Positions 2,260 to 20,000 of a stretch of 20,000 bases of DNA are shown one piece after another. Each line of letters begins with the position of its first letter. Within the stretch, counting starts at the first letter, position 1. Source of the DNA: Mayamaea pseudoterrestris (Eukaryota); NCBI GenBank assembly GCA_027923505.1, contig BROI01000024.1, forward strand, positions 421,194 to 441,193, in the 5' to 3' direction. The notes under the pieces were generated by a model. It searched no databases and was not told the origin of the DNA. It was given only the letters and a program-made list of their open reading frames with translations. The translations under genes and the position numbers were made by a program.

Positions 2260-2400
2260 ATACACTACACTCTCCCCTGCAGCAGAAAGCAAGCTTGAAA
2301 GTCGTTATTAAGTCTGCTGCCTCGCACTGAATACACTATAATCTCCATTGTAGCAGAAGCAAGCTCAAGAGTCGTTATCAGGTGTGCTGCCTCGCTCATA
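2260..2400. repeat. Two imperfect tandem copies of a ~71-bp unit
   Basis: ATACACTA...AGCAGAA(A)GCAAGCT...GTCGTTAT...TGCTGCCTCGC begins at 2260 and again at 2331. Confidence 0.75.
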
Positions 2401-2798: not shown

Positions 2799-5700
2799 TC
2801 ACCTCCAACTCTCGTCTGTCTTGCTTCCTGATGCGTCTGACAGTTTCGAGTCGGATCGCTCCCGCTGTAAAACATGAATGCTCAGGTCGCTAAACATTGG
2901 CGAAACGTCGTCAACCACCTTAAACAGTCGAGGCAGGTTGATGGGCTTGCTTTCCATGACATCCAGACCCGCATCCTTAAACTTCATCAGTTCGCTTCTT
3001 TCAAAGTCATCGACGTACGTAGCCGTCAACGCGCAGATAGGTTGACGCGCCCCGGGACGCATTTTATCCTCCCACTCTCTCAATTGCTTCGTCGCCTCGA
3101 AGCCATTCATGACCGGCATGTCGATATCCATAAATGCAATATCATAAATAGATTGCTTCAGTTTATCCACGCCCTCGGCACCGTTCGAAGCGGTGTCAAC
3201 GAAAAAGTCTGCGTTTTCGAAAGCGCGCTTGACCATTTTTCTCGTAACTCCACTATCATCAATGACTAAAATCTTCCGTTTGAGGCCTGTATGTCTCCAG
3301 CCGTCAAGTCCGCTGTTCATACAGTGATAGCGGAGCTGGCGTAGAATCATTAAGGAAGCTTCAGCGTATTGGGTGAGGATTACTTGGTGTTGCATCGGAT
3401 CCTCTTCTTGCTCAATCATATCCATGGCCGTGCCCTTTAACTCTTCTAACTGTTGCTCGAACTGAGGGAACATGGTAATACGCGCTTTTACTTTGTTCTT
3501 CCGCTCCTTTTCCTTGTCCAAATTCGATTCGACGGACTCTCCCTGGCCCAGCTGGTTCGTAGATCGGACCATGCCGCCACCATGATCGCTGTCGTCGTTC
3601 GAAGTAGAGCCCAAACCATGATCCGGTTCAGATTGGGACGATTGCTCCTGTTCATGCCCATCTTCATTTATGTGATCTGTATTATCGACATCTTCAATTA
3701 TAAATTTTGCAGGTGGATCAGCAAGTAGGCCTTGAAAGGACGCCCAAGTGTTCCAGTCGGCGTTCGCCTGTAATTTATCGAGGTCAAGCCCAACGGAGCC
3801 CTTGAGGCTTGGCAGTAGGTTCGGTAGCTCGTCACGAATCTCCCCCGCCACCTCACTATCAAGAGCAGCCAACAAATCTCCGCGAAGCTTCAGATTTATG
3901 TAACCATCGCTTCCTCGATCACCCTCGCCGCCATCGGGATCATAAAAATACTTCTGGAGCGCAGTCAACTCATCTTCATCGAACGGAATTCTACTCAGCC
4001 AGCCGAGAAGTCGGAAATAGGCATTTTGCGATGGGGAACCATGTATGTCGTTGATCATCGCCACAAAGTCTGGCGTAAGAAACCTTCTATCCTGGCTATT
4101 TGCACCTAGAGCGGCGGAAAGGTCGAGATCAAAGCCGTCATTCCGAGCGCCCTGGTTTTTCGCAAGTCGGTTGTTTTCCATCCATTGCAGTATCGTTTTC
4201 ATTTGTTCGTCCTTTCGAATACGAAAGCATACTTCATTTGGTTCATCTTGAAGCGAGGGGTCAAGTGCACCAATCGCAACCATCGGCGGTCCAGCAGCAA
4301 AGCCACGAACTCGTTTCATTGGAACCCATCTGTTTGAAATTATACCCGTGGCGATATGGCACTGCGCCGCTTGTCCGAGACAGCAATTGTCAAGATCGAG
4401 CTCCTCAAGGCGAGGATGTTGCGCAAGCGTGTAAGCAAGGGCAATCGCGCCAGATATTCGAAGAATGTTGCCGGAAAGACCGAGATAAGTGATCGACTCA
4501 CACCCGATAAGACTCCTCATCAGACTCGTTATTCCACGGCTTCCAATCTGGTTGAAGCTAAGGTTAAGTCGCGAAAGCGCCGTCATACTTTGAAGGGAGG
4601 CGGCGACGAGTTGACATCCTTGGTCACCAATTGCATTCTTATCCAAGGAGAGGCTTCTAAGCTCGTGCTGTAGCAGCTTGTTCATTATTGTTTCAACGCC
4701 ACCAGCACCGATTGAATTTGACGAAAGCTTCAAATCCACTAGAGGACTTTTAGTGCGCTTCGAAATAATCTTCGTTAACTGGGTAGTACCATCGTCACCG
4801 AGATTGTTATTTGACATGTCTAATCGATCGAGAAATTCCATGGGAACGAACTTTTGTCTGCTTTCAAGGAACCGCACCAAGACGCCAGCTCCGCTCGTAC
4901 CGAATTTATTTGAGGATAAGTTAAGCTCCTGAATTTTACTCTTCGGTCCAAGACCGTCAAACAACCGACTGATAGCATCAGCCGTCATCGAACAATTCGC
5001 AAGATGTAGCACCTTCAGCTCATTCTGGTCTCGCTTGTCTGAAATGCCATTATCACCAGGCTTTTTAATCTTGGTTTTTCGTTTTGACGTCGACAAAAAA
5101 TCTTCATCGTCGTCATCATCGTCTGAGGAAGTCTCATCAGAGTCGTATCCAGTCTTTCTTGTAGTTGAATCCCTTGAGCGTTTCCTCCTTTGCTTCCGAA
5201 CTTCTTCAGAAGGTGACAAAGATGTACCTAGCTCCGCAGCGGACCGGACAGATACATAGTTGCCTGACAAGATAAGGCCGCGCAAGGGAGGCAAGCCTCG
5301 CCGTTTTCGCTTGGCAAGAGTTCGCGCAAGCGCTAACAATCCCTTCTCCTCAATTTTACAAAAGCTGATGTCCAACGTTTTCAAGCAAGAATGTTCGCTG
5401 TGGATAATTTCGGATAGCATCTCCATACCAGCGTTACCAATATATGTATACGAGAGATTAATGACAGATATTGGAGGCGGTGCAGATTGTGGTTGGGCCG
5501 GAATGTTAAATGATGGTCGCCGGTTGGGAGTGAGCTGGCCAGAGCGTCCCGTCGGCGTCGAGTTTGACCCAGGCGGACTCAGACTTTGTCGCTCGCTATC
5601 GAGCAGCAAATGCGCAAACGCGTCCTTCAGACTTATGCCGTTTTGTAAAGTAGCAATCATCAAAGGTGCCACTTTGTCCACAGCGAGTTTACCCGACAGC

Positions 5701-7361
5701 ACAAGCGTAATCATTTTTATTTCCTCGGGGTAAAGGCGCGTCAGTCCCATGTCAAGTCGAACACCTTCTCGCACAGACTGTATCATGGACCATGGGTCAA
5801 ACGTTTTCTTTTGAGCGCCAGTAACACTTTCCTTCAACGCCTGCTCCATTTGCGACTCAGCCGTGCCACTGCCCCCAAGAGGATTTCCGCCTGACGCAGC
5901 GATTCGAACCAAATTGATATCTTCTTGACTCATTCCGGAGGCTGACATGGATTCTAGAATCGACTGATACACTGCCAAGTCCTCCATCGATGTCATGCTT
6001 TCAAAATTCGGTGGCGGTGTGGGTTCTTCTTGGACATTCTGCTGTTCGGCTTCATTGGTCGTCGGTTTAGCACCCATCAGAAACGAAGCCTCGACTGCCT
6101 GCACTAATATAGCAGTTATCCTCGTTATTCGATTTATCCGCCTCGCTAGCTCTTCATCATGCACGTACGACTCCAGTAGTATTATCGCTGGTATTGGTTC
6201 GTGAACGTATTCCACCGCTCTCGACAATAGCCATATCCATTGGCCGCCGAGCTCCGGCACAGTCCGTCGCCGCAAGTAGACTGGGACACCGGATTGACCC
6301 TTGTCCCAAAAATGCGACTTTATAAATAAGAAACCAGGCAAGTCCTGTTCGTCTACATTGTCATACGCCGTAGTCATTAACAACGCTTCCGGAGGAAAGC
6401 CAGTGACAGTTCGTGTCGCCTCAAGAATAGTGCCTAGAAAACGGAGGTAAACGGTCAGAAACGAACAATATACGACAAGCCTAATGTGATTATTGCTTAC
6501 CATTTTGAGCAATTGTCAAGTAGTGCCCCTCGGGAAGCGACGCCAAAGGATTCTCGTTGGAAAAGCTCATCTCGTCAAAGGGTTGTTGGTGTTGGTGTTG
6601 AAGAAATTGCTGGAAATACTCGTGCGGAATTTGTTGCTGCATTCCACCATCTTGATGCATGACTCCATCTGTTGATTGCTGATATATGTTTTGAAACGGA
6701 GGCTGTGCTTGTCGATGGAATGGTGATACGCCACTCTTCTCTTCGGGTTGCGCAATTTGAAAATTAATTTGCCCCTGATGTAGCCCCATCACCTCATGAA
6801 GAAGATGCTGATCACCATTGGAAATTTCACCATTGCTACTCGACTGTTCCAGCTCGTTGATGAATTGCAACTGCTGATCATCCAGCTGCACCTGGTTTTG
6901 TTTTGTATTCGATGACCAGGGGCCCATTGGAATACCCTCGCGCTGAGCAGCTTCCAGCATGGCCGCGCGAGCGGCTTTCTCTGCCGCTTGCATCATCATT
7001 TTCCGAGACCCTCTCACTCTCTATCAATGTTTTGGAAGATCAAGAAAGTGACCAAAGAATAGATTTAGACTGCGCTCGGATATAAAGGTGCGTTCACCTT
7101 GACTACACTGCGCGAGTGGATTGCCGTCATCGTTGATCTGCAGCTGTCGCTCACCACGAGGAGTTGGATCCCGTATTTCCGAAAATGACCCGAAAGGTAA
7201 TCTGGTGGTCGTAAGAAACCCACTGTGAATGACGCCACAGCGGAACACTGATTTCCCATTGACGTGAACCGACCCGCAGCTCCGTACTTGTGATACGTTG
7301 AATGGCCTTCTGCAGTTCCAGCGAATTCTGGTCTTCCCAAAGAAATTCGCATTCGAGTCAT
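2799..7361 (-). CDS. Large RI-like leucine-rich-repeat protein with a C-terminal response-regulator receiver domain; predicted exons 7361-7098, 7020-6501, 6433-2799 (~1472 aa)
   Basis: Many LxxLxLxxNxI(G) repeats. The REC domain has ILVIDD...FMDIDMPVMNGFE...ALTA...SKP. Two frame-preserving introns join three ORFs: 7097-7021 (GTGAAC...TAG) and 6500-6434 (GTAAGC...CTGAC...CTAG). The exon 1 assignment is less certain. Confidence 0.8.
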
Positions 7362-12149: not shown

Positions 12150-13325
12150 ATGGCATCCGCGTACCTGCGGTCACTCTTGTCAAGGCCTCTCGCAGTGCCG
12201 ATGCTATGGTACGCGTCAATGTCCATTTTCGACAAGCAGCCATCGGCATCAAAATCGGCTCGTTGCGAGGCAGAAGTAAACAAGAATAACAATGCTTCAA
12301 CGAAAGAAACCAAGCAGCAGCAGTTGCAAGCGCGACTCATATTCCTTGGAACAGGCTCCAGTACAGGCTGTCCCAGGCCCCTATGTACCATGCTCTTTCG
12401 CGGTGCCAGTCCCAGCCATGACCCCAAAGTGAAGGATTACTTTGACTGCACCGTTTCCAATCTAGCCGTTCCATTTCATGCCAACAACCCGGCAAACAAC
12501 AAGAACTACCGCAACAATCCTTCATTGCTACTGCAAACCGAAAATGGCTGTATTACCATCATTGACGTTGGCAAAACCTTTCGGGAAGGCGCGCTGCGCT
12601 GGTTTCCGCGCTACCAGATTGGATCCATTGACTCCATTGTCTTGACGCACGAGCACATGGACGCCGCCGGAGGTTTGGATGACGTGCGGGGATTTCAACA
12701 ATATGCAATAATTAATGACAAAGAGTCGCAACAGCGGCGAACCAAGGTGGTCCCCATGCCGCTGCACCTTTCGCAACATTGCTACAATGACTTGCAGCAG
12801 CGGTTTCCCTGGCTCTTGCCGCAACCAGCGTCAACGATAGATGCTGCTGCTGCTTCTAGCGACGAAAGCAAGCCAGTCGTTCAACGACACGTGGCAACCT
12901 TCCAAGTCGAAACCTTTGAAGCGTTCCAACCATTTTTGACGAATGACGGTCAATTGGAAATAACGCCACTACCCGTCATGCACGGCGAAGACCTAATTTC
13001 CTACGGCTTTAGCTTCACCATTGGCACGTTGAACGTTGTCTACTTGAGCGACATTTCCCGCATGCTTCCTTCAACCCTCGACTACATTTTAGACAAGCCA
13101 ACGGACATTTTGATTGTGGACGCGCTGCACGAGGCGGAGTCCAACGCCGTGCACTACACGCTGCACGAGGCGCTGGCATTGGTTGCAACGATACAGCCAA
13201 AGCAAACGTACTTTGTGGGAATGAGCTGCGATAGCTTTCTGCCGCATGACGACATGAACAAAATGCTTGCTGGAAAATATGGCAACGTTGCGTTTGCGCA
13301 TGATGGCTTGGAAATATTGGCATGA
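12150..13325 (+). CDS. Metallo-beta-lactamase-fold hydrolase (PhnP-like), complete copy 2
   Basis: 391 aa: LIFLGTGSSTGCP, NKNYRNNPSLLL, IDVGKTF, THEHMDAAGGLDD, MHG, YLSD and AHDGL. Confidence 0.92.
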   Translation: MASAYLRSLLSRPLAVPMLWYASMSIFDKQPSASKSARCEAEVNKNNNASTKETKQQQLQARLIFLGTGSSTGCPRPLCTMLFRGASPSHDPKVKDYFDCTVSNLAVPFHANNPANNKNYRNNPSLLLQTENGCITIIDVGKTFREGALRWFPRYQIGSIDSIVLTHEHMDAAGGLDDVRGFQQYAIINDKESQQRRTKVVPMPLHLSQHCYNDLQQRFPWLLPQPASTIDAAAASSDESKPVVQRHVATFQVETFEAFQPFLTNDGQLEITPLPVMHGEDLISYGFSFTIGTLNVVYLSDISRMLPSTLDYILDKPTDILIVDALHEAESNAVHYTLHEALALVATIQPKQTYFVGMSCDSFLPHDDMNKMLAGKYGNVAFAHDGLEILA

Positions 13326-14357
13326 CACTAACGATAATAGAGGTTCTACTGTAGATTTAATCTTTGTACATTGTTTAGTAGAAGATCTCTTTTACATTCA
13401 CCTCATTCATTGCCGTTGCTTGGAGCGAAACTCGTCAAAATTCTGTTTCGCTCCCGTCTGAAAACTCGTTACGGCAAAGTTCACCACCGCCTGGTTAACA
13501 ACGTTGGACGCCGCCCTGATGGTTGGTTCCGGCAGTAGGCGCAGCGGCAGCGGCAAGACTCCCTTGGTTGCAAAGGCAATGGCTCCAAACACTCCCCTGC
13601 CGTTGCTGCTTGGTTTCATTTGACCAAACACTTGAATGGAAACATTGAGCGACGCGGGCGTGACGGTCAACCCCGGCAATCCCAACACTTGCACGTTTGG
13701 GTTGTAGTCGACGCTCTGCAGCGAAAAAATGGGGTCTCCCGTAACGCGGCTCACGAGCGTCTTCATTTCCACGTCCACGGTCGGAGACAGTTGAATCGTG
13801 AAAAACTGCAGCGTCATGACTTGGAGGCGAAAAATGTGGCGGTCAATTTGCGACAAGAGTTTGGGGTCCCAAATGCTGCGCGCCAAGCCGACCGTGTCGT
13901 TGAGCCAGTGGCGAATGGTGTGCCGATCGTCCCGTTCGACGAGTAACGTTTGAAGGTTGGCGGTTGCTCCAAACTCGATGTGACCAGTGGATTTATCGAG
14001 CTTGAAGTATGGTCCTTTGCGACTCAATAACTCGCGGCGGCGGTTTTCCGAAACAGGAGTCTGTCTTTGGGTTGCTTGTAGTTTTGAAAAGGAAAAGCGA
14101 TGATGATTACGTTGTATCGTCGTTTGTCGTTGCAAGTCAAAGGCGCTCGATGCTCCAAGCGTGAATAACACGCCGGCTGCAGCTGCAAGCAGCTTTGGTG
14201 CATTCATCCTCATTTTGTATCGAGTCTTTCGTGAGCCTTGGCGTTACAGTCTACTTGGAGGATGATGAGAGACGAAGTGCATGGAAAGGGAACAGCAAGG
14301 ATGTGATGGTTTGCGGAATGTTCGACGCGAACGTGAGGTGCTGACTCATGAGAACTA
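12497..14357 (+). repeat. Direct repeat, copy 2 (matches 1..1861)
   Basis: Same sequence as 1..1861, but it continues into TTCTGCCTAGGGG and the satellite flank instead of HSP70. Confidence 0.97.
13407..14213 (-). CDS. Probable plastid-targeted DUF1997-like protein, copy 2
   Basis: Translation is identical to 911..1717. Confidence 0.65.
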   Translation of the reverse strand: MRMNAPKLLAAAAGVLFTLGASSAFDLQRQTTIQRNHHRFSFSKLQATQRQTPVSENRRRELLSRKGPYFKLDKSTGHIEFGATANLQTLLVERDDRHTIRHWLNDTVGLARSIWDPKLLSQIDRHIFRLQVMTLQFFTIQLSPTVDVEMKTLVSRVTGDPIFSLQSVDYNPNVQVLGLPGLTVTPASLNVSIQVFGQMKPSSNGRGVFGAIAFATKGVLPLPLRLLPEPTIRAASNVVNQAVVNFAVTSFQTGAKQNFDEFRSKQRQ

Positions 14358-14605: not shown

Positions 14606-17600
14606 CTAGAGCCATGTGCATGCCCAAATCAAGCCAGAATGGTGCTAACATCCTTATTTTGGGTGGCTACAAGATGCCTTGCCTGGCTGGTCCTTTGGTA
14701 GACTGCTATGAGCTTGGTGACAACTTGTCACCAGTCTCAGCCAGCAGCTGCCATGCCTTTCAAACGCCTATACCTAGAGCCCTGTGCATGCCCAAATCAA
14801 GCCAGAATGGTGCTAACATCCTTATTTCAGGTGCGCTACAAGATGCCTTGCCTGGCTGGTCTGATAGTAGACTGCAATGGGATTGGTGACAACTTGTCAC
14901 CAGTCTCAGCCAGCAGCTGCTATGGCTTTCAAACACCCATTCCTAGAGCCATGTGCATGCCCAAATCGAACGTGTTAACATCCTCATTTCAGGTGCGCTA
15001 CAAGATGCCTTGCCTGGCTGGTCCCATGGTAGACTGCAATGGGATTGGTGACAACTTGTCACCAGTCTCAGCCAGCAGCTGCCATGTCTTTCAAATGCCC
15101 TACTTAGAGCCATGAGAATGCCCCAATTAAATCAGAATGGTGCTGACATCCTTATTTCGGGTGCGCAACAAGATGCCTTGCTTGGCTGGTGCCTTGGTAG
15201 ACTGCAATGGGATTGGTGATAACTGGTCACCAGTCTCAGCCAGCTTCTGCCATGCCTTTTAAACACTCAGATCTAGATCCATGTGTATGCCCAAACCAAG
15301 CCAGAATGCTGCAAACATCCTTATTTTAGTTGCGCTACATGATGCATTGCCTGGATGGTCTCTTAGTAGACTGCATTGGGATTGGTGACAACTTGTCACC
15401 AGTCTCAGCCAGCAGCTGCTATGCCTTTCGAACACCCATACCTAGAGCCATGTGCATGCCCAAATCAAGCCAGAATTGTGCTAACATCCTTATTTCAGGT
15501 GCGCTACAAGATGCCTTGCCTGGCTGGTCCTTTGGTAGACTGCTATGAGCTTGGTGACAACTTGTCATCCGTCTCAGCCAGCAGCTGCCATGCCTTTCAA
15601 ACGCCTATCCCTAGAGCCATGTGTTTGCCCAAATCAAGCCAGAATGGTGCTGAGATCCTAATCTCAGGTGCGCTTTAAGATGCATTGCCTAGATGGTCTC
15701 TTGGTAGACTGCAATGGGATTGGTGACAACAAGTCACCAGTCTCAGCCAGCACCTGCCATGCCCTTCAAATGCCCAATCAAGCCAGAATGATGCAAACAT
15801 CCTTTATTTTGGGCGCGCTACAAGTTGCCTTGCCTATCTGGTCCCTTGGTAGACTGCATGGGGATTGGTGACAACTAGTCACCAGTCTCAACCAGCAGCG
15901 GCAATGCCTTTCAAACACCCATATCTAGAGCCATGTGCATGCCCAAATCAAGCCAGAATGGTGCTAGCATCCTTATGTCAGGAGCACTACAAGATGCCTT
16001 GCCTGGCTGGTCCTTTGGTAGACTGCAATGAGCTTGGTGACAACTTGTCACCAGCCTCAGCCAGCAGTTGCTATGCCTTTCGAACACCCATACCTAGAGC
16101 CATGTGCATGCCCAAATCAAGCCAGAATGGTGCTAACATCCTTATTTCAGATGCGCTACAAGATGCCTTGCCTGGCCAGTCTCTTGGTAGACTGCAATGG
16201 GATTGTGATAACTTGTCACCAGTCTCAGCCAGCAGCTGGCATGCCTTTCAAATGCCCATACCTTGAGCCATGTGCATGCTCAATTTTACCAAGAATGGTG
16301 CTTACATCTTTTTTTCAGGTGCGCTACAAGATGCCTTGCCTGGCTGCTTCCTTGGTAGAATGCCATTGGATTGGTGATAACTTGTCACCAGTCTCAGCCA
16401 GCAGCTGCTATGCCTTTCGAACACCCATACCTAGAGCCATGTGCATGCCCAAATCAAGCCAGAATGGTGCTAACATCCTTATTTCAGATGCGCTACAAGA
16501 TGCCTTAACTGGATTGTCTCTTGGTAGACTGCATGGGGATTGGTGACAACTTCTCACCAGTCTCAGCCAGCAGCTGCTATGCCTTTCGAACACCCATACC
16601 TAGAGCCATGTGCATGCCCAAATCAAACCAGAATGGTGCTAACATCCTTATTTCAGGTGCGCTACAAGATGCCTTGCCTGGCTGGTCCCATGGTAGACTG
16701 CAATGGGATTGGTGACAACTTGTCACCAGTCTCAGCCAGCAGCTGCTATGCCTTTCGAACACCCATACCTAGAGCCATGTGCATGCCCAAATCAAGCCAG
16801 AATGGTGCTAACATCCTCATTTTGGGTGCGCAACAAGATGCCTTGCTTGGCTGGTCCCTTGGTAGACTGCAATGGGATTGGTAATAACTTGTCACCAGTC
16901 TCAGCCAGCTTCTGTCATGCCTTTCAAACACCCAGATATATGCCCAAATCAAGCCAGAATGCTGCAAACATCCTTATTTTAGTTGCGCTACAAGATGCAT
17001 TGCCTGGATGGTATCTTGGTAGACTGCATTGGAATTGGTGACAACTTGTCACCAGTCTCAGCCAGCAGCTGCTATGCCTTTCGAACACCCATACCTAGAG
17101 CCATGTGCATGCCCAAATCAAGCCAAAATGGTGCTAACATCCTTATTTTGGGTGCGCTACAAGATGCCTTGCCTGGCTGGTCCTTTGGTAGACTGCTATG
17201 AGCTTGGTGACAACTTGTCACCAGTCTCAGCCTAACACCGCGACGATTTCGCAGTCAACGTCTTACCTCCAAAAAGCTCCGATACAGGGTCCTTGGCCAC
17301 GGTCTGTACAGCTCTTGATGGAGATGGCTCGTCCGATCAATAATGACGTTGCGCACTTTCTTCATTCACATGTCACATACGACAGCTGCGGACTCGACAC
17401 AAGCTAATTAGGGTTCGGGCTCTTGACTTCGCCGCTCTGCGACTTGTCACAGCCAGCAGCTGCCATGCCTTTCAAACGCCTATACCTAGAGCCATGTGCA
17501 TGCCCAAATCAAGCCAGAATGGTGCTAACATCCTTATTTCAGGTGCGCTACAAGATGCCTTGCCTGGCTGGTCCTTTGGTAGACTGCAATGAGCTTAGTG

Positions 17601-19633
17601 ACAACTTGTCACCAGTCTCAGCCAGCAGCTGCCATGCCTTTCAAACACCCAGATCTAGATCCATGTGTATGCCCAAACCAAGCCAGAATGCTGCAAACAT
17701 CCTTATTTTAGGTGCGCTACATGATGCATTGCCTGGATGGTCTCTTGGTAGACTGCATTGGGATTGGTGACAACTTGTCACCAGTCTCAGCCAGCAGCTG
17801 CTATGCCTTTCGAACACCCATACCTAGAGCTATGTGCATGCCCAAATCAAGCCAGAATGGTGCTAACATCCTTTTTTCAGGTGCGCTACAAGATGCCTTG
17901 CCTGGCCGGTCATTGTAAGACTGCAATGGAAATGGTGATAACTTGTCACCAGTCTCAGCCAGCAGTTGCCATGCCTTTCAAGAGTCCATACTTAGATCCA
18001 TGTGTATGCCCAATTCAAGCCAGAATGGTGCTATCATCCTTATTTCAGGTGCGCTACAAGATGCCTTGCCTGGCTGGTCCGAAAGTAGACTGCAATGGGA
18101 TTGGTGACAACTTGTCACCAGTCTCAGCCAGCAGCTGCTATGCCTTTCAAACACCCATTCCTAGAGCCATGTGCATGCCCAAATTGAACGTGTTAACATC
18201 CTCATTTCAGGTGCGCTACAAGATGCCTTGCCTGGCTGGTCCCATGGTAGACTGCAATGGGATTGGTGACAACTTGTCACCAGTCTCAGCCAGCAGCTGC
18301 CATGTCTTTCAAATGCCCTACTTAGAGCCATGAGAATGCCCCAATTAAATCAGAATGGTGCTAACATCCTTATTTTGGGTGCGCAACAAGATGCCTTGCT
18401 TGGCTGGTGCCTTGGTAGACTGCAATGGGATTGGTGATAACTTGTCATTAGTCTCAGCCAGCTTCTGCCATGCCTTTTAAACACCCAGATCTAGATCCAT
18501 GTGTATGCCCAAACCAAGCCAGAATGCTGCAAGCATCCTTATATTAGGTGCGCTACATGATGCATTGCCTGGATGGTCTCTTGGTAGACTGCATTGGGAT
18601 TGGTGACAACTTGTCACCAGTCTCAGCCAGCAGCTGCTATGCCATCAAACACCCATACCTAGAGCCATGTGCATGCCCAAATCAAGCCAGAATGGTGCTA
18701 ACATCCTTATTTCAGGTGCGCTACTTGCCTGGCTGGTCCTTTGGTAGACTGCTATGAGCTTGGTGACAACTTGTCATCCGTCTCAGCCAGCAGCTGCCAT
18801 GCCTTTCAAACGCCTATCCCTAGAGCCATGTATTTGCCCAAATCAAGCCAGAATGATGCTGACATCCTAATCTCAGGTGCGCTATAAGATGCATTGCCTG
18901 GATGGTCTCTTGGTAGACTGCAATGGGATTGGTGACAACAAGTCACCAGTCTCAGCCAGCACCTGCCATGCCTTTCAAGAGTCCATACTTAGATCCATGT
19001 GTATGCCCAATTCAAGACAGAATAATGCTTACATCTATATTTCAGGTGCACCACAAGATGCCATGCCTGGCTTGTCCGTCGGTAGACTGCAATGTCATTG
19101 GTGACAACAAGTCACCGGTCTCAGCCAGCAGCTGCCATGCCTTTCAAACGCCCATACCTAGAGCCGCGTGTTTGCCGAAATCAAGCCAGAATGGTGCAAA
19201 CATCCTTATTTCCGGTGCGCTACAAGACGCATTGCCTGGATGGTCTCTTGGTAGACTGCATTGGGATTGGTGACAACTTGTCATCAGTCTCAGCCAGCAG
19301 CTGCTATGCCTTTCGAACACCCATACCTAGAGCCATGTGCATGCCCAAATCAAGCCACAATGGTGCTAACATCCATTTATCAGGTGCGCTATAAGATGCA
19401 TTGCCTGGATGGTCTCTTGGTAGACTGCAATGGGATTGTGACCACTTGTCACCAGTCTTAGCCAGCCGCTGCCATGCCTTTCAAACACCCATACCTTGAG
19501 CCATGTGCATGCCCAAATCAAGCCAGAATGGTGCTAGCATCCTTATGTCAGGTGCACTACAAGATGCCTTGCCTGACTGGTCCTTTGGTAGACTGCAATG
19601 TGATTGGTGACAACAAGTCACCAGTCTCAGTCA
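14606..19633. repeat. Tandem satellite array, 169-bp monomer, ~29 copies
   Basis: The CTAGAGCC anchor recurs at 14606, 14774, 14943, 15104, 15273, 15442, 15611 and onward, with a 169-bp period and occasional deletions. Most monomers carry TGGTGACAA-C-TTGTCACCA. Confidence 0.97.
17233..17449 (-). mobile_element. 217-bp insertion with 5-bp TSD; probable internally deleted solo LTR
   Basis: CAGCC is duplicated at 17228-17232 and 17450-17454, and the satellite resumes in register. On the minus strand the insert reads TGACA...TGTTA (TG...CA-like, with a short imperfect terminal inverted repeat). It is homologous to 19634..20000. Confidence 0.75.
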
Positions 19634-20000
19634 TGACAAGTCGCAGAGCGGCGAAGTCAAGAGCCCGAACCCTAATTAGCTTGTGTCGAGTCCGCAGCTG
19701 TCGTATGTGACATGTGAATGAAGAAAGTGCGCAACCGTCGTGTGGATGCGTTGTATGAATGGAACGACCAGTTACGACTGATGTAATGTGATTGAAAGAA
19801 ACGGATTGATCGGATGATCTTCCGAGTGAGCCGATGTAGCGATGTATGGCGATAAGCTCACAATATAGAACTACTAGTTTGCGACGAGAGTGCAGTCGTA
19901 TTCGTGTAGTGGCGAGCGCAGAAGACTATTCGATGAGCCATCTCCATCACAGGCTATGTACAGACCGTGGCCAAGGACCTGTATCCGGACTTTTGGAGGT
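19634..20000 (+). mobile_element. Longer copy of the same LTR-like element, opposite orientation, running off the window
   Basis: 19634-19735 is the exact reverse complement of 17348-17449. 19935-20000 matches the reverse complement of 17265-17330 with several indels. It begins TGACAAGTC immediately after satellite sequence ...GTCTCAGTCA. Confidence 0.78.

Follow-up and report, generated by a model that had tools for sequence, protein, structure and literature searches.

Background

A 169-bp satellite in a 20,000-nt stretch of diatom DNA, the whole of which is called the window here, is interrupted twice by one short repeat at nearly the same base of its monomer. This raises the question of whether an LTR-type element prefers a defined site in the satellite, or whether two unrelated landings came to lie close together by chance. 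In plants and animals, centromeres are shaped by LTR elements that home to tandem repeats; the only characterised diatom centromeres, to our knowledge, are those of Phaeodactylum, which are not known to contain a satellite. An initial annotation of the window had proposed that the repeat integrates at one position of the monomer, and knew of no such case in diatoms. The latter statement agrees with our literature search, which found no comparable satellite-associated LTR element in diatoms; a further search on insertion-position preference within monomers found nothing directly relevant. We report herein that the two insertions are related, yet separate events, that the repeat is probably of LTR origin, and that the near-identity of the two sites most likely reflects a real, non-exclusive preference for the best-conserved part of the monomer, beside a palindrome.

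Results

A 169-bp satellite in a single orientation

A period of 169 was reported by Tandem Repeats Finder at 14606-17232 (15.8 copies, 81% matches) and at 17446-19630 (13.0 copies, 83% matches). Overall, the satellite extends over 14606-19633, with two interruptions by one repeat family (Table 1). All 28 monomers extracted from the array have the same orientation, and their consensus, 169 nt in length, begins with the letters GTCTCAGCC. The G+C content of the array is 0.494 versus 0.492 in the rest of the window. The best-conserved 15-nt window of the monomer is centred on position 4, with a mean conservation of 0.97, and the summed contig depth peaks at the bins covering this conserved stretch (17197-17234) in all four public runs. 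A conserved palindrome, GGTGACAA-C-TTGTCACC, precedes the insertion site at a distance of 5 nt for insertion 1 and 11 nt for insertion 2, and the first 8 nt of the inserted element, TGACAAGT, are present in the minus strand of this palindrome. Moreover, the array contains internally duplicated blocks, 14903-15739 and 18121-18948, which match at 97-99% per monomer. An exact-string search with the satellite core gave no match. Derivation of the satellite from the element, or the reverse, was rejected, as a local alignment between the two scored 11, a value reached by 245 of 300 shuffles.

Elsewhere in the window, a copy of a DUF1997 gene ends about 290 bp before the start of the array, and the named best matches of the window's proteins come from the diatoms Fistulifera, Seminavis, Cylindrotheca, Pseudo-nitzschia, Fragilaria and Nitzschia, at 48-61% identity, which identifies the host as a diatom.

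Table 1. Parts of the satellite array, the two insertions and their target sites (positions in the window)
Feature	Position	Strand	Remark
Satellite array, left part	14606..17232	+	Abrupt start at monomer position 41
Conserved monomer palindrome GGTGACAA-C-TTGTCACC (8+8)	17206..17222	.	Adjoins insertion 1
Target-site duplication CAGCC, left copy	17228..17232	.	Monomer positions 5-9
Insertion 1, 217-nt short form of LTR-like repeat	17233..17449	-	5'-TGACAAG...GGTGTTA-3'
Target-site duplication CAGCC, right copy	17450..17454	.	Repeats left copy perfectly
Satellite array, right part	17455..19633	+	13 monomers
Putative insertion 2 target site AGTCA	19629..19633	.	Monomer positions 6-10
Insertion 2, long form of LTR-like repeat	19634..20000	+	367 nt up to window end

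Two related insertions, made separately

Insertion 1 entered the array cleanly: a short stretch of the target is duplicated, and the monomer register is otherwise intact. CAGCC, which occurs once in the monomer consensus, stands in two copies around the element, and the anchor spacing across the insertion is 222, that is, 217 plus 5. The duplication and the minus-strand placement given in the initial annotation were recovered. The flanking base is G at both ends of insertion 1 and of copies outside the window; in the window and the public-run contigs together, a G borders the element in three of four 5' flanks and in all three 3' flanks. With a G beside both ends, lengths of 5, 4 or 3 bp are all compatible with the duplication at insertion 1, and the two insertion sites may differ by 0 or 1 nt.

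Insertion 2 begins at 19634, directly after ...GTCTCAGTCA. By comparison with insertion 1, about 32 nt of it are expected to lie beyond the window end, as do its right end and the second copy of its duplication, so that the assignment of its target to positions 6-10 assumes a duplication of 5 bp. At monomer position 8, its flank carries a T where all 28 monomers carry a C, and its site is therefore certain only to about 2-3 nt. The earlier statement that insertion 2 lies 1 nt further along the monomer agrees with positions 6-10 against 5-9, but an offset of 0 can also be read.

When insertion 1 is reverse-complemented, its first 102 bases are identical to those of insertion 2 (102/102), while similarity near the 3' end is 84.5% over a 71-column alignment. 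Between these parts, insertion 2 has about 200 additional internal bases; where longer copies have about 190-200 nt, insertion 1 carries a 14-nt segment (17334-17347). Such a mosaic is not predicted by a simple ageing of two insertions. The family may thus be described as having a long form of about 400 nt and a 217-nt form lacking about 190 internal bases.

That the two insertions are independent follows from their position on opposite strands of a uniformly oriented array. They also differ in structure, the 28 other monomer junctions are without the element, and the monomers that most closely match the flanking ones sit at uninterrupted junctions; the two events assumed in the initial annotation are borne out in this respect. 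No further pieces of the element were detected in the window, giving two copies among 30 monomers and none in the other 14.6 kb.

Site preference and copies elsewhere

Both target sites fall inside the 15-nt stretch in which conservation of the monomer is highest. If insertion were uniform over 169 positions, the chance of landing within 1 nt would be 3/169 = 0.018, or 5/169 = 0.03 when a site uncertainty of 2-3 nt is allowed, both values referring to a coincidence of two events that was noticed after the fact. With two of two insertions within 1-3 nt (n = 2), these data weakly support targeting of a defined monomer site.

In public sequencing runs, the element was found with non-satellite flanks in X2 (record 12), X3 (records 19 and 20) and X1 (at least 6 plus 2 loose-end contigs), and the only contigs seen in X2 and X3 are of this kind. 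Among the contigs listed for X1, one leads from the element's 5' end, at base 17449, through six other letters into the satellite at monomer position 150, about 25-30 nt from the window site. The family thus also occurs at other sites and outside the satellite, and the proposed integration at a defined satellite site describes the two insertions in the window, but not the X1 junction or the copies with other flanks. For X1 and X5, flanks were read for the contigs listed, and those of most copies lie outside this set. Over the element, contig depths add up to about 10^4-10^5 in X1 and 10^3-10^4 in X5, and the depths of single satellite-variant contigs are 73-413 and 7-32, respectively. By this rough measure, which is not a copy number, the element is multi-copy in both runs. 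In X2 and X3 it is represented by about one contig path.

An element of the same kind might have no targeting at all: it would insert widely, its copies in the satellite would survive at no cost, and the two sites would be close by chance. The non-satellite flanks in three runs and the junction at another monomer position agree with such a view, and the satellite, which is very abundant in the runs (it has the highest summed depths), presents a large target. Moreover, the coincidence was noticed after the fact with n = 2, and its p, about 0.02-0.03, is modest. What this view leaves to chance, however, is that both events fell in the one 15-nt window where the monomer is best conserved, 1-3 nt apart and in opposite orientation. 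We consider the absence of targeting possible, if doubtful.

Class of the element

An LTR origin of the repeat is probable, LTR being the best available class. Both copies in the window begin with TG, and the terminal 5 nt form an inverted match at four of five positions (TGACA/TAACA). The TG...CA ends named in the initial annotation are correct for the 5' end, but the 3' end reads ...GGTGTTA, with a terminal TA, in all three cases seen (insertion 1, the X1 consensus and an X3 contig). A CA at the 3' end is normally needed by integrases, and ends other than CA exist in some LTR families.

The borders of the element are well marked and shared with copies elsewhere. Contigs of X2 and X3 equal insertion 1 at 17242-17333 and 17348-17450 with 0 differences and then diverge, and the terminal TAACACC is retained in their 3' loose ends. 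In X3 record 20, a contig of 1933 nt, the element's TG is immediately preceded by a purine run, GAGGGGAG, that resembles a polypurine tract. The 5 bases on either side of the X3 element (records 19 and 20) differ from each other, which would be expected if one side were internal sequence. On the other hand, one X3 contig passes straight across the 5' boundary of the element, which is unexpected if that genome contains two identical LTRs with different neighbours. Neither in X3 nor in the X1 consensus (6 contigs, agreement 0.68) does the sequence beyond the 3' end open with the TGG of a primer binding site, and no internal region, gag, pol or paired direct copies were seen in the window or in the flanks of public-run contigs (up to 30 nt of letters). 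Exact scans with stretches of 25 and 22 nt from the element gave 0 matches in metagenome, viral and prokaryote genome contigs.

Several other classes were rejected. For a DNA transposon or MITE with terminal inverted repeats, the first 40 nt were compared with the reverse complement of the last 40 nt, and the best local score, 7, was reached by 180 of 1000 shuffles. A SINE does not fit an element with 0 tRNA genes, no tRNA-, 5S- or 7SL-like head, and no A-rich or simple-repeat tail after its GGTGTTA end. Known RNA families gave only three Rfam matches, all far under their gathering scores, the best within the element reaching 20.8 bits against 65.

A short non-autonomous mobile element of some unknown or undescribed non-LTR class, making a duplication of 3-5 bp, could account for the TA end, and also for the fact that neither a primer binding site nor a pol gene nor paired copies were seen. 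The G at the borders would likewise permit a unit 1-2 nt longer with a duplication of 3-4 bp. Against this reading stand the lack of terminal inverted repeats and of any tRNA-, 5S- or 7SL-like head or tail, as well as the purine run before the 5' end in X3. Moreover, the length of 217-400 nt, the TG start and the terminal inverted match all suit an LTR. A non-LTR origin therefore appears unlikely to us.

Discussion

Our tentative first choice among the readings of this locus is that one short LTR-type repeat family integrated twice, independently, with a real but non-exclusive local preference. An integrase would have cut the satellite with a stagger of about 5 bp, once at monomer positions 5-9 and once, in a separate event, at 6-10. 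The cDNA ends, 5'-TG...TA-3', would have been joined at the cut, and repair would then have duplicated the target. Insertion 1 would now be a solo copy, produced by LTR-LTR recombination or by entry as a short non-autonomous unit, and insertion 2 could be solo as well, or else belong to a complete element as its 5' LTR. The preference itself may stem from the sequence or shape of the DNA, from a bound factor, or from the phase of nucleosomes on the 169-bp repeat.

A more specific version, which we hold to be improbable as it stands, is that of a diatom LTR family integrating in either orientation within a window of 1-2 nt, guided by the palindrome 5-11 nt before the site. The 5' terminus of the element copies a half-site of the palindrome, and the cDNA end could accordingly be linked to the satellite by spare integrase subunits or by a satellite-binding factor acting as a dimer. 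If this version were true, the family would be a position-specific satellite-targeting LTR element among the diatoms, where no satellite is known at the characterised centromeres of Phaeodactylum.

The same palindrome, 5 nt before the site of insertion 1 and 11 nt before that of insertion 2, would also suit a fragile site that breaks repeatedly and whose repair captures retroelement cDNA or other DNA, and the reuse of one spot in either orientation would be accounted for. Capture at breaks, however, leaves ragged ends and no duplication, whereas the duplication at insertion 1 is perfect and its ends are exact and recur in copies elsewhere, so that we regard repeated breakage as very unlikely. 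That a single insertion was multiplied afterwards by recombination in the array can hardly be credited at all, despite the duplicated blocks of the array, the high element depths in X1 and X5 that such copying could partly explain, and the same pattern in other species in the available part of a preprint (10.64898/2026.09.17.752431): the two copies lie on opposite strands of a satellite with one orientation and differ in length, flank variant and register, which contradicts array copying for insertions 1 and 2; further copies elsewhere in the genome may have arisen in this way.

Satellite-associated LTR elements are an already known kind, which the family favoured here, with its independent integrations and local preference, would join. 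If the preference for one spot is true, it would offer a simple system for how an integrase reads a repeated target, and a marker for those regions of this diatom's genome that are rich in satellite and may be centromeric. As two cases, and no full-length element, were seen, the locus is for now a good lead only.

Repeated use of one position of a tandem repeat unit is also found in R1 and R2, which insert in rDNA, and in TRAS and SART, which insert in telomeric repeats. These belong to the non-LTR class, cut with sequence-specific endonucleases and use almost no other target, whereas site use in the present family is non-exclusive. Among diatom LTR retrotransposons, the copia-like CoDi elements, such as Blackbeard of Phaeodactylum, share a diatom host and, at the level at which they can be compared, a short target duplication (TTCC at one Blackbeard insertion); unlike the present case, no satellite association or site preference was found in the accessible portion of that report (PMC2806351). 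In brown algae, the nearest studied stramenopile relatives, the centrophilic ECR (Ty3) and Copia elements are similarly LTR families tied to particular chromosomal regions, but the centromeres there are reported to be without satellite DNA, whereas the host sequence here is a satellite (10.64898/2025.12.07.692804, from the part available).

ATHILA and other centrophilic LTR elements come closer. According to the available text of the survey describing them (10.64898/2026.09.17.752431), satellite arrays are broken up by LTR elements and by solo LTRs, independent events are recognised by duplications that differ, as may be the case in our window, and copies are multiplied by array recombination. 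By its own statement that survey sampled few microbial eukaryotes, and the portion at hand includes no diatom; the element described here is known only as a repeat of 217-400 nt. Tal1, a Ty1/copia element of Arabidopsis lyrata, enters the tandem repeats of centromeres by way of CENH3 chromatin, and no fixed position within the monomer is reported in the accessible part of PMC11735389. Unlike Tal1 as portrayed there, the present element is known without a coding part and has copies outside the satellite as well, and its host is known as a satellite, not as a centromere. Nonetheless, what the two appear to have in common, on the evidence of that text, is an LTR-type element entering a tandem repeat of nucleosome length by fresh, independent integrations.

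Genes and satellite array of the window

The genes on the left side of the window are eukaryotic, and encode an LRR and receiver-domain protein, a protein kinase, a Vps4/spastin-like AAA ATPase, a metallo-beta-lactamase fold protein and a DUF1997 protein. The first of these has leucine-rich repeats followed by a C-terminal response-regulator receiver domain. A diatom host is borne out by the ATPase, whose named best relatives are from the raphid diatoms Fistulifera, Seminavis, Cylindrotheca, Pseudo-nitzschia, Fragilaria and Nitzschia (48-61% identity). The 3' part of the metallo-beta-lactamase-fold gene and the DUF1997 gene lie in a perfect direct duplication (3 more mismatches to ~1861), which may reflect either segmental duplication in the very recent past or an error of assembly; a short tandem repeat separates its first copy from the LRR gene. 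Coordinates are collected in the table.

Positions of the features discussed, in window coordinates
Feature	Position	Strand	Remarks
Insertion 1	17233-17449	-	217 nt, CAGCC on both sides
CAGCC duplication	17228-17232 and 17450-17454		directly adjoining insertion 1; once in monomer
Insertion 2	19634 to window end	+	367 nt, after ...GTCTCAGTCA
Element terminus, insertion 1	17442-17449		first 8 nt
Palindrome	17206-17222		matches terminus on minus strand
Terminus match beside insertion 2	19613-19619	+	7 nt
Period-169 array, left part	14606-17232		15.8 copies, 81% matches
Period-169 array, right part	17446-19630		13.0 copies, 83% matches
Five-monomer block	14903-15739 and 18121-18948		3,218 bp off; 97-99% identity per monomer
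Direct duplication	1-1821 and 12497-14317		1,821 bp, 12,496 bp apart
70-bp tandem repeat	2260-2395		1.9 copies, 81% matches
LRR/receiver ORF	2799-6512	-	1,237 aa, uninterrupted

A tandem 169-bp array, delimited with Tandem Repeats Finder, fills the right quarter of the window. Its left edge is abrupt, at monomer position 41, ~290 bp past the gene copy in the second duplication unit. Monomers were excised by the anchor motif GTCTCAGCC, the G of which is position 1 (n=28; consensus 169 nt). All 28 share a single orientation, with a mean pairwise identity of 0.85, and the G+C content of the array (0.494) matches that of the remaining sequence (0.492). Conservation along the monomer peaks in a 15-nt window centred at position 4 (mean conservation 0.97; minimum 0.84), and a palindrome, GGTGACAA-C-TTGTCACC, occupies positions 152-168, in the conserved stretch just before the insertion site. 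Recurrence of a five-monomer block, with a 7-nt deletion common to both copies, indicates a higher-order duplication inside the array.

Two related insertions at nearly one monomer position

The initial annotation described two copies of an LTR-like element interrupting the satellite at almost the same place, and this stands. The duplication bordering insertion 1 corresponds to monomer positions 5-9, and the anchor spacing across this insertion is 222, i.e., 217+5; a 5-bp duplication for insertion 2, whose right end is beyond the window, would correspond to positions 6-10. At their 5' ends (TGACAAG...), the minus-strand reading of insertion 1 and insertion 2 are identical at 102/102 bases; near the 3' end they align at 84.5% over 71 columns, and insertion 2 carries ~200 extra internal bases. 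The window holds no further pieces of the element. The mosaic likeness of the two copies suggests subfamilies, recombination or gene conversion among copies.

Contigs of four coded public sequencing runs (X1, X2, X3 and X5), aligned to 17064-17618, provided outside evidence on the element. The insertion-1 sequence type occurs at both ends in X2 and X3 contigs. While the annotated 5' TG was retained, the 3' terminus reads ...GGTGTTA in the window copy and in X1 and X3 contigs, that is, TA rather than the CA claimed. In the orientation of the element, the 5' neighboring base is G for insertion 1 and for both outside flanks listed from these runs, but A for insertion 2, and the 3' neighboring base is G in 3/3 ends seen. 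With a G on both sides, insertion 1 permits a duplication length of 5, 4 or 3 bp, and the two events would lie 0 or 1 nt apart. Beside insertion 2, window position 19631 is a T at monomer position 8, where 28/28 monomers have C, so that satellite sequence is certain only up to position 7 and the insertion site only to within ~2-3 nt. Either the target underwent a point change here, or the junction is something other than a simple 5-bp duplication.

Independence of the two events

The two insertions are independent events, as had been proposed. They lie on opposite strands of a satellite of uniform orientation, and are unlike in length and in flanking monomer variant (CTTGTCACC vs CAAGTCACC). 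The flanking monomers m17055 and m19455 are nearest to m15402 (0.964) and m15885 (0.923), respectively, both at uninterrupted junctions. Given these strands, lengths, variants and uninterrupted relatives, a single insertion multiplied by array expansion does not account for the pair. According to a preprint on satellite arrays, same-strand identical duplications mark copying, and differing duplications mark independent events (10.64898/2026.09.17.752431).

With uniform insertion along the monomer and n=2 events, the chance of the second falling <=1 nt away is 3/169 (0.018), or 5/169 (0.03) if 2 nt are allowed. Both insertions lie inside the monomer's most conserved 15-nt window. As a possible hint at the mechanism, the element begins with 8 nt, TGACAAGT, that equal one arm of the palindrome, a match reached by 1/704 mock termini drawn from insertion 2; the simple chance expectation of an 8-mer match, for either end and either strand, is ~0.01. 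Beside insertion 2, the variant CAAGTC yields a shorter match, and each match runs in the orientation of its insertion. The resemblance could be due to chance; if it is real, it would point to recognition of both the LTR end and the satellite by one factor or integrase subunit.

Class of the element

The element is probably of the LTR type, the best class among those tried, and for insertion 1 a solo LTR is the best, albeit unproven, class. X2 record 12 (a 1207-nt contig, depth 13) shows 0 differences over 17242-17333 and 17348-17450, with 191 nt between the two parts, which represents the long form; its flanks of 661 nt and 160 nt found no placement on satellite parts of the reference. X3 records 19 (249 nt) and 20 (1933 nt) likewise show 0 differences over both parts, beyond which they continue into non-satellite sequence. 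The terminal TAACACC is kept in both 3' loose ends listed (X1 and X3), and thus the unit ends in the same way away from the satellite. In X3, a purine run, GAGGGGAG, immediately precedes the element TG, in a polypurine-tract-like position, and the five bases on either side of the element differ from each other.

An LTR identity, as first suggested, is favored by the short duplication, the shared ends and the failure of other classes, but the TA end is at odds with the textbook definition, and a TGG-type primer binding site was absent after the 3' end in X3 and in the X1 consensus (6 contigs, agreement 0.68). Exact scans with two element stretches gave no match in metagenome, viral or prokaryote contigs. 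The other classes fail: three Rfam matches were all far under gathering scores; there were 0 tRNA genes; the element has no tail; and there was no terminal inverted repeat, 180/1000 shuffles reaching the score. Nor is the element akin to the satellite overall (245/300 shuffles reach the alignment score).

The satellite as a possible target

Over the element, contig depths add up to very high values in X1 (~10^4-10^5) and X5 (~10^3-10^4; sums, not copy numbers), but only to 13-40 in X2 and X3. Single satellite-variant contigs have depths of 73-413 in X1 and 7-32 in X5; high abundance of the element and of the satellite thus coincides by run. This joint abundance and the two independent insertions at one spot count for the satellite as a target. 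Exclusive use of the satellite is opposed by the X2 and X3 copies, which lie outside it, and by X1, where, among the contigs listed, at least six at the 3' end and at least two at the 5' end exit into other sequence. In at least one X1 contig, monomer position 150, which is ~25-30 nt from the insertion site in the window, is linked to element base 17449 with six other letters in between. Of the proposed integration at a defined satellite site, what stands is the pair of hits at one spot: a local insertion preference is possible, whereas the data do not support one defined site for the whole family.

Satellite and element are both present in the four runs, which are labelled as four different organisms. 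The X1/X5 and X2/X3 runs are orders of magnitude apart in summed element depth, despite the 0-difference matches in X2 and X3. The runs may represent closely related strains that differ by a recent element burst.

Comparison with known systems

The initial interpretation holds in part, but two events are insufficient to establish site-specific targeting by the element in the window; a local preference is possible. Literature searches gave no account of a satellite combined with LTR elements or centromeres in diatoms, nor of the satellite core as an exact string. Diatoms are missing from a survey of LTR elements in satellite arrays (10.64898/2026.09.17.752431), and the available portion of a report on diatom CoDi elements mentions no satellite link (PMC2806351). 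Satellite-associated and centrophilic LTR elements are already well described. Tal1 enters Arabidopsis centromeric repeats via CENH3 chromatin (PMC11735389), ATHILA and others break up satellite arrays (10.64898/2026.09.17.752431), and brown algae harbor centrophilic ECR and Copia elements without a centromeric satellite (10.64898/2025.12.07.692804).
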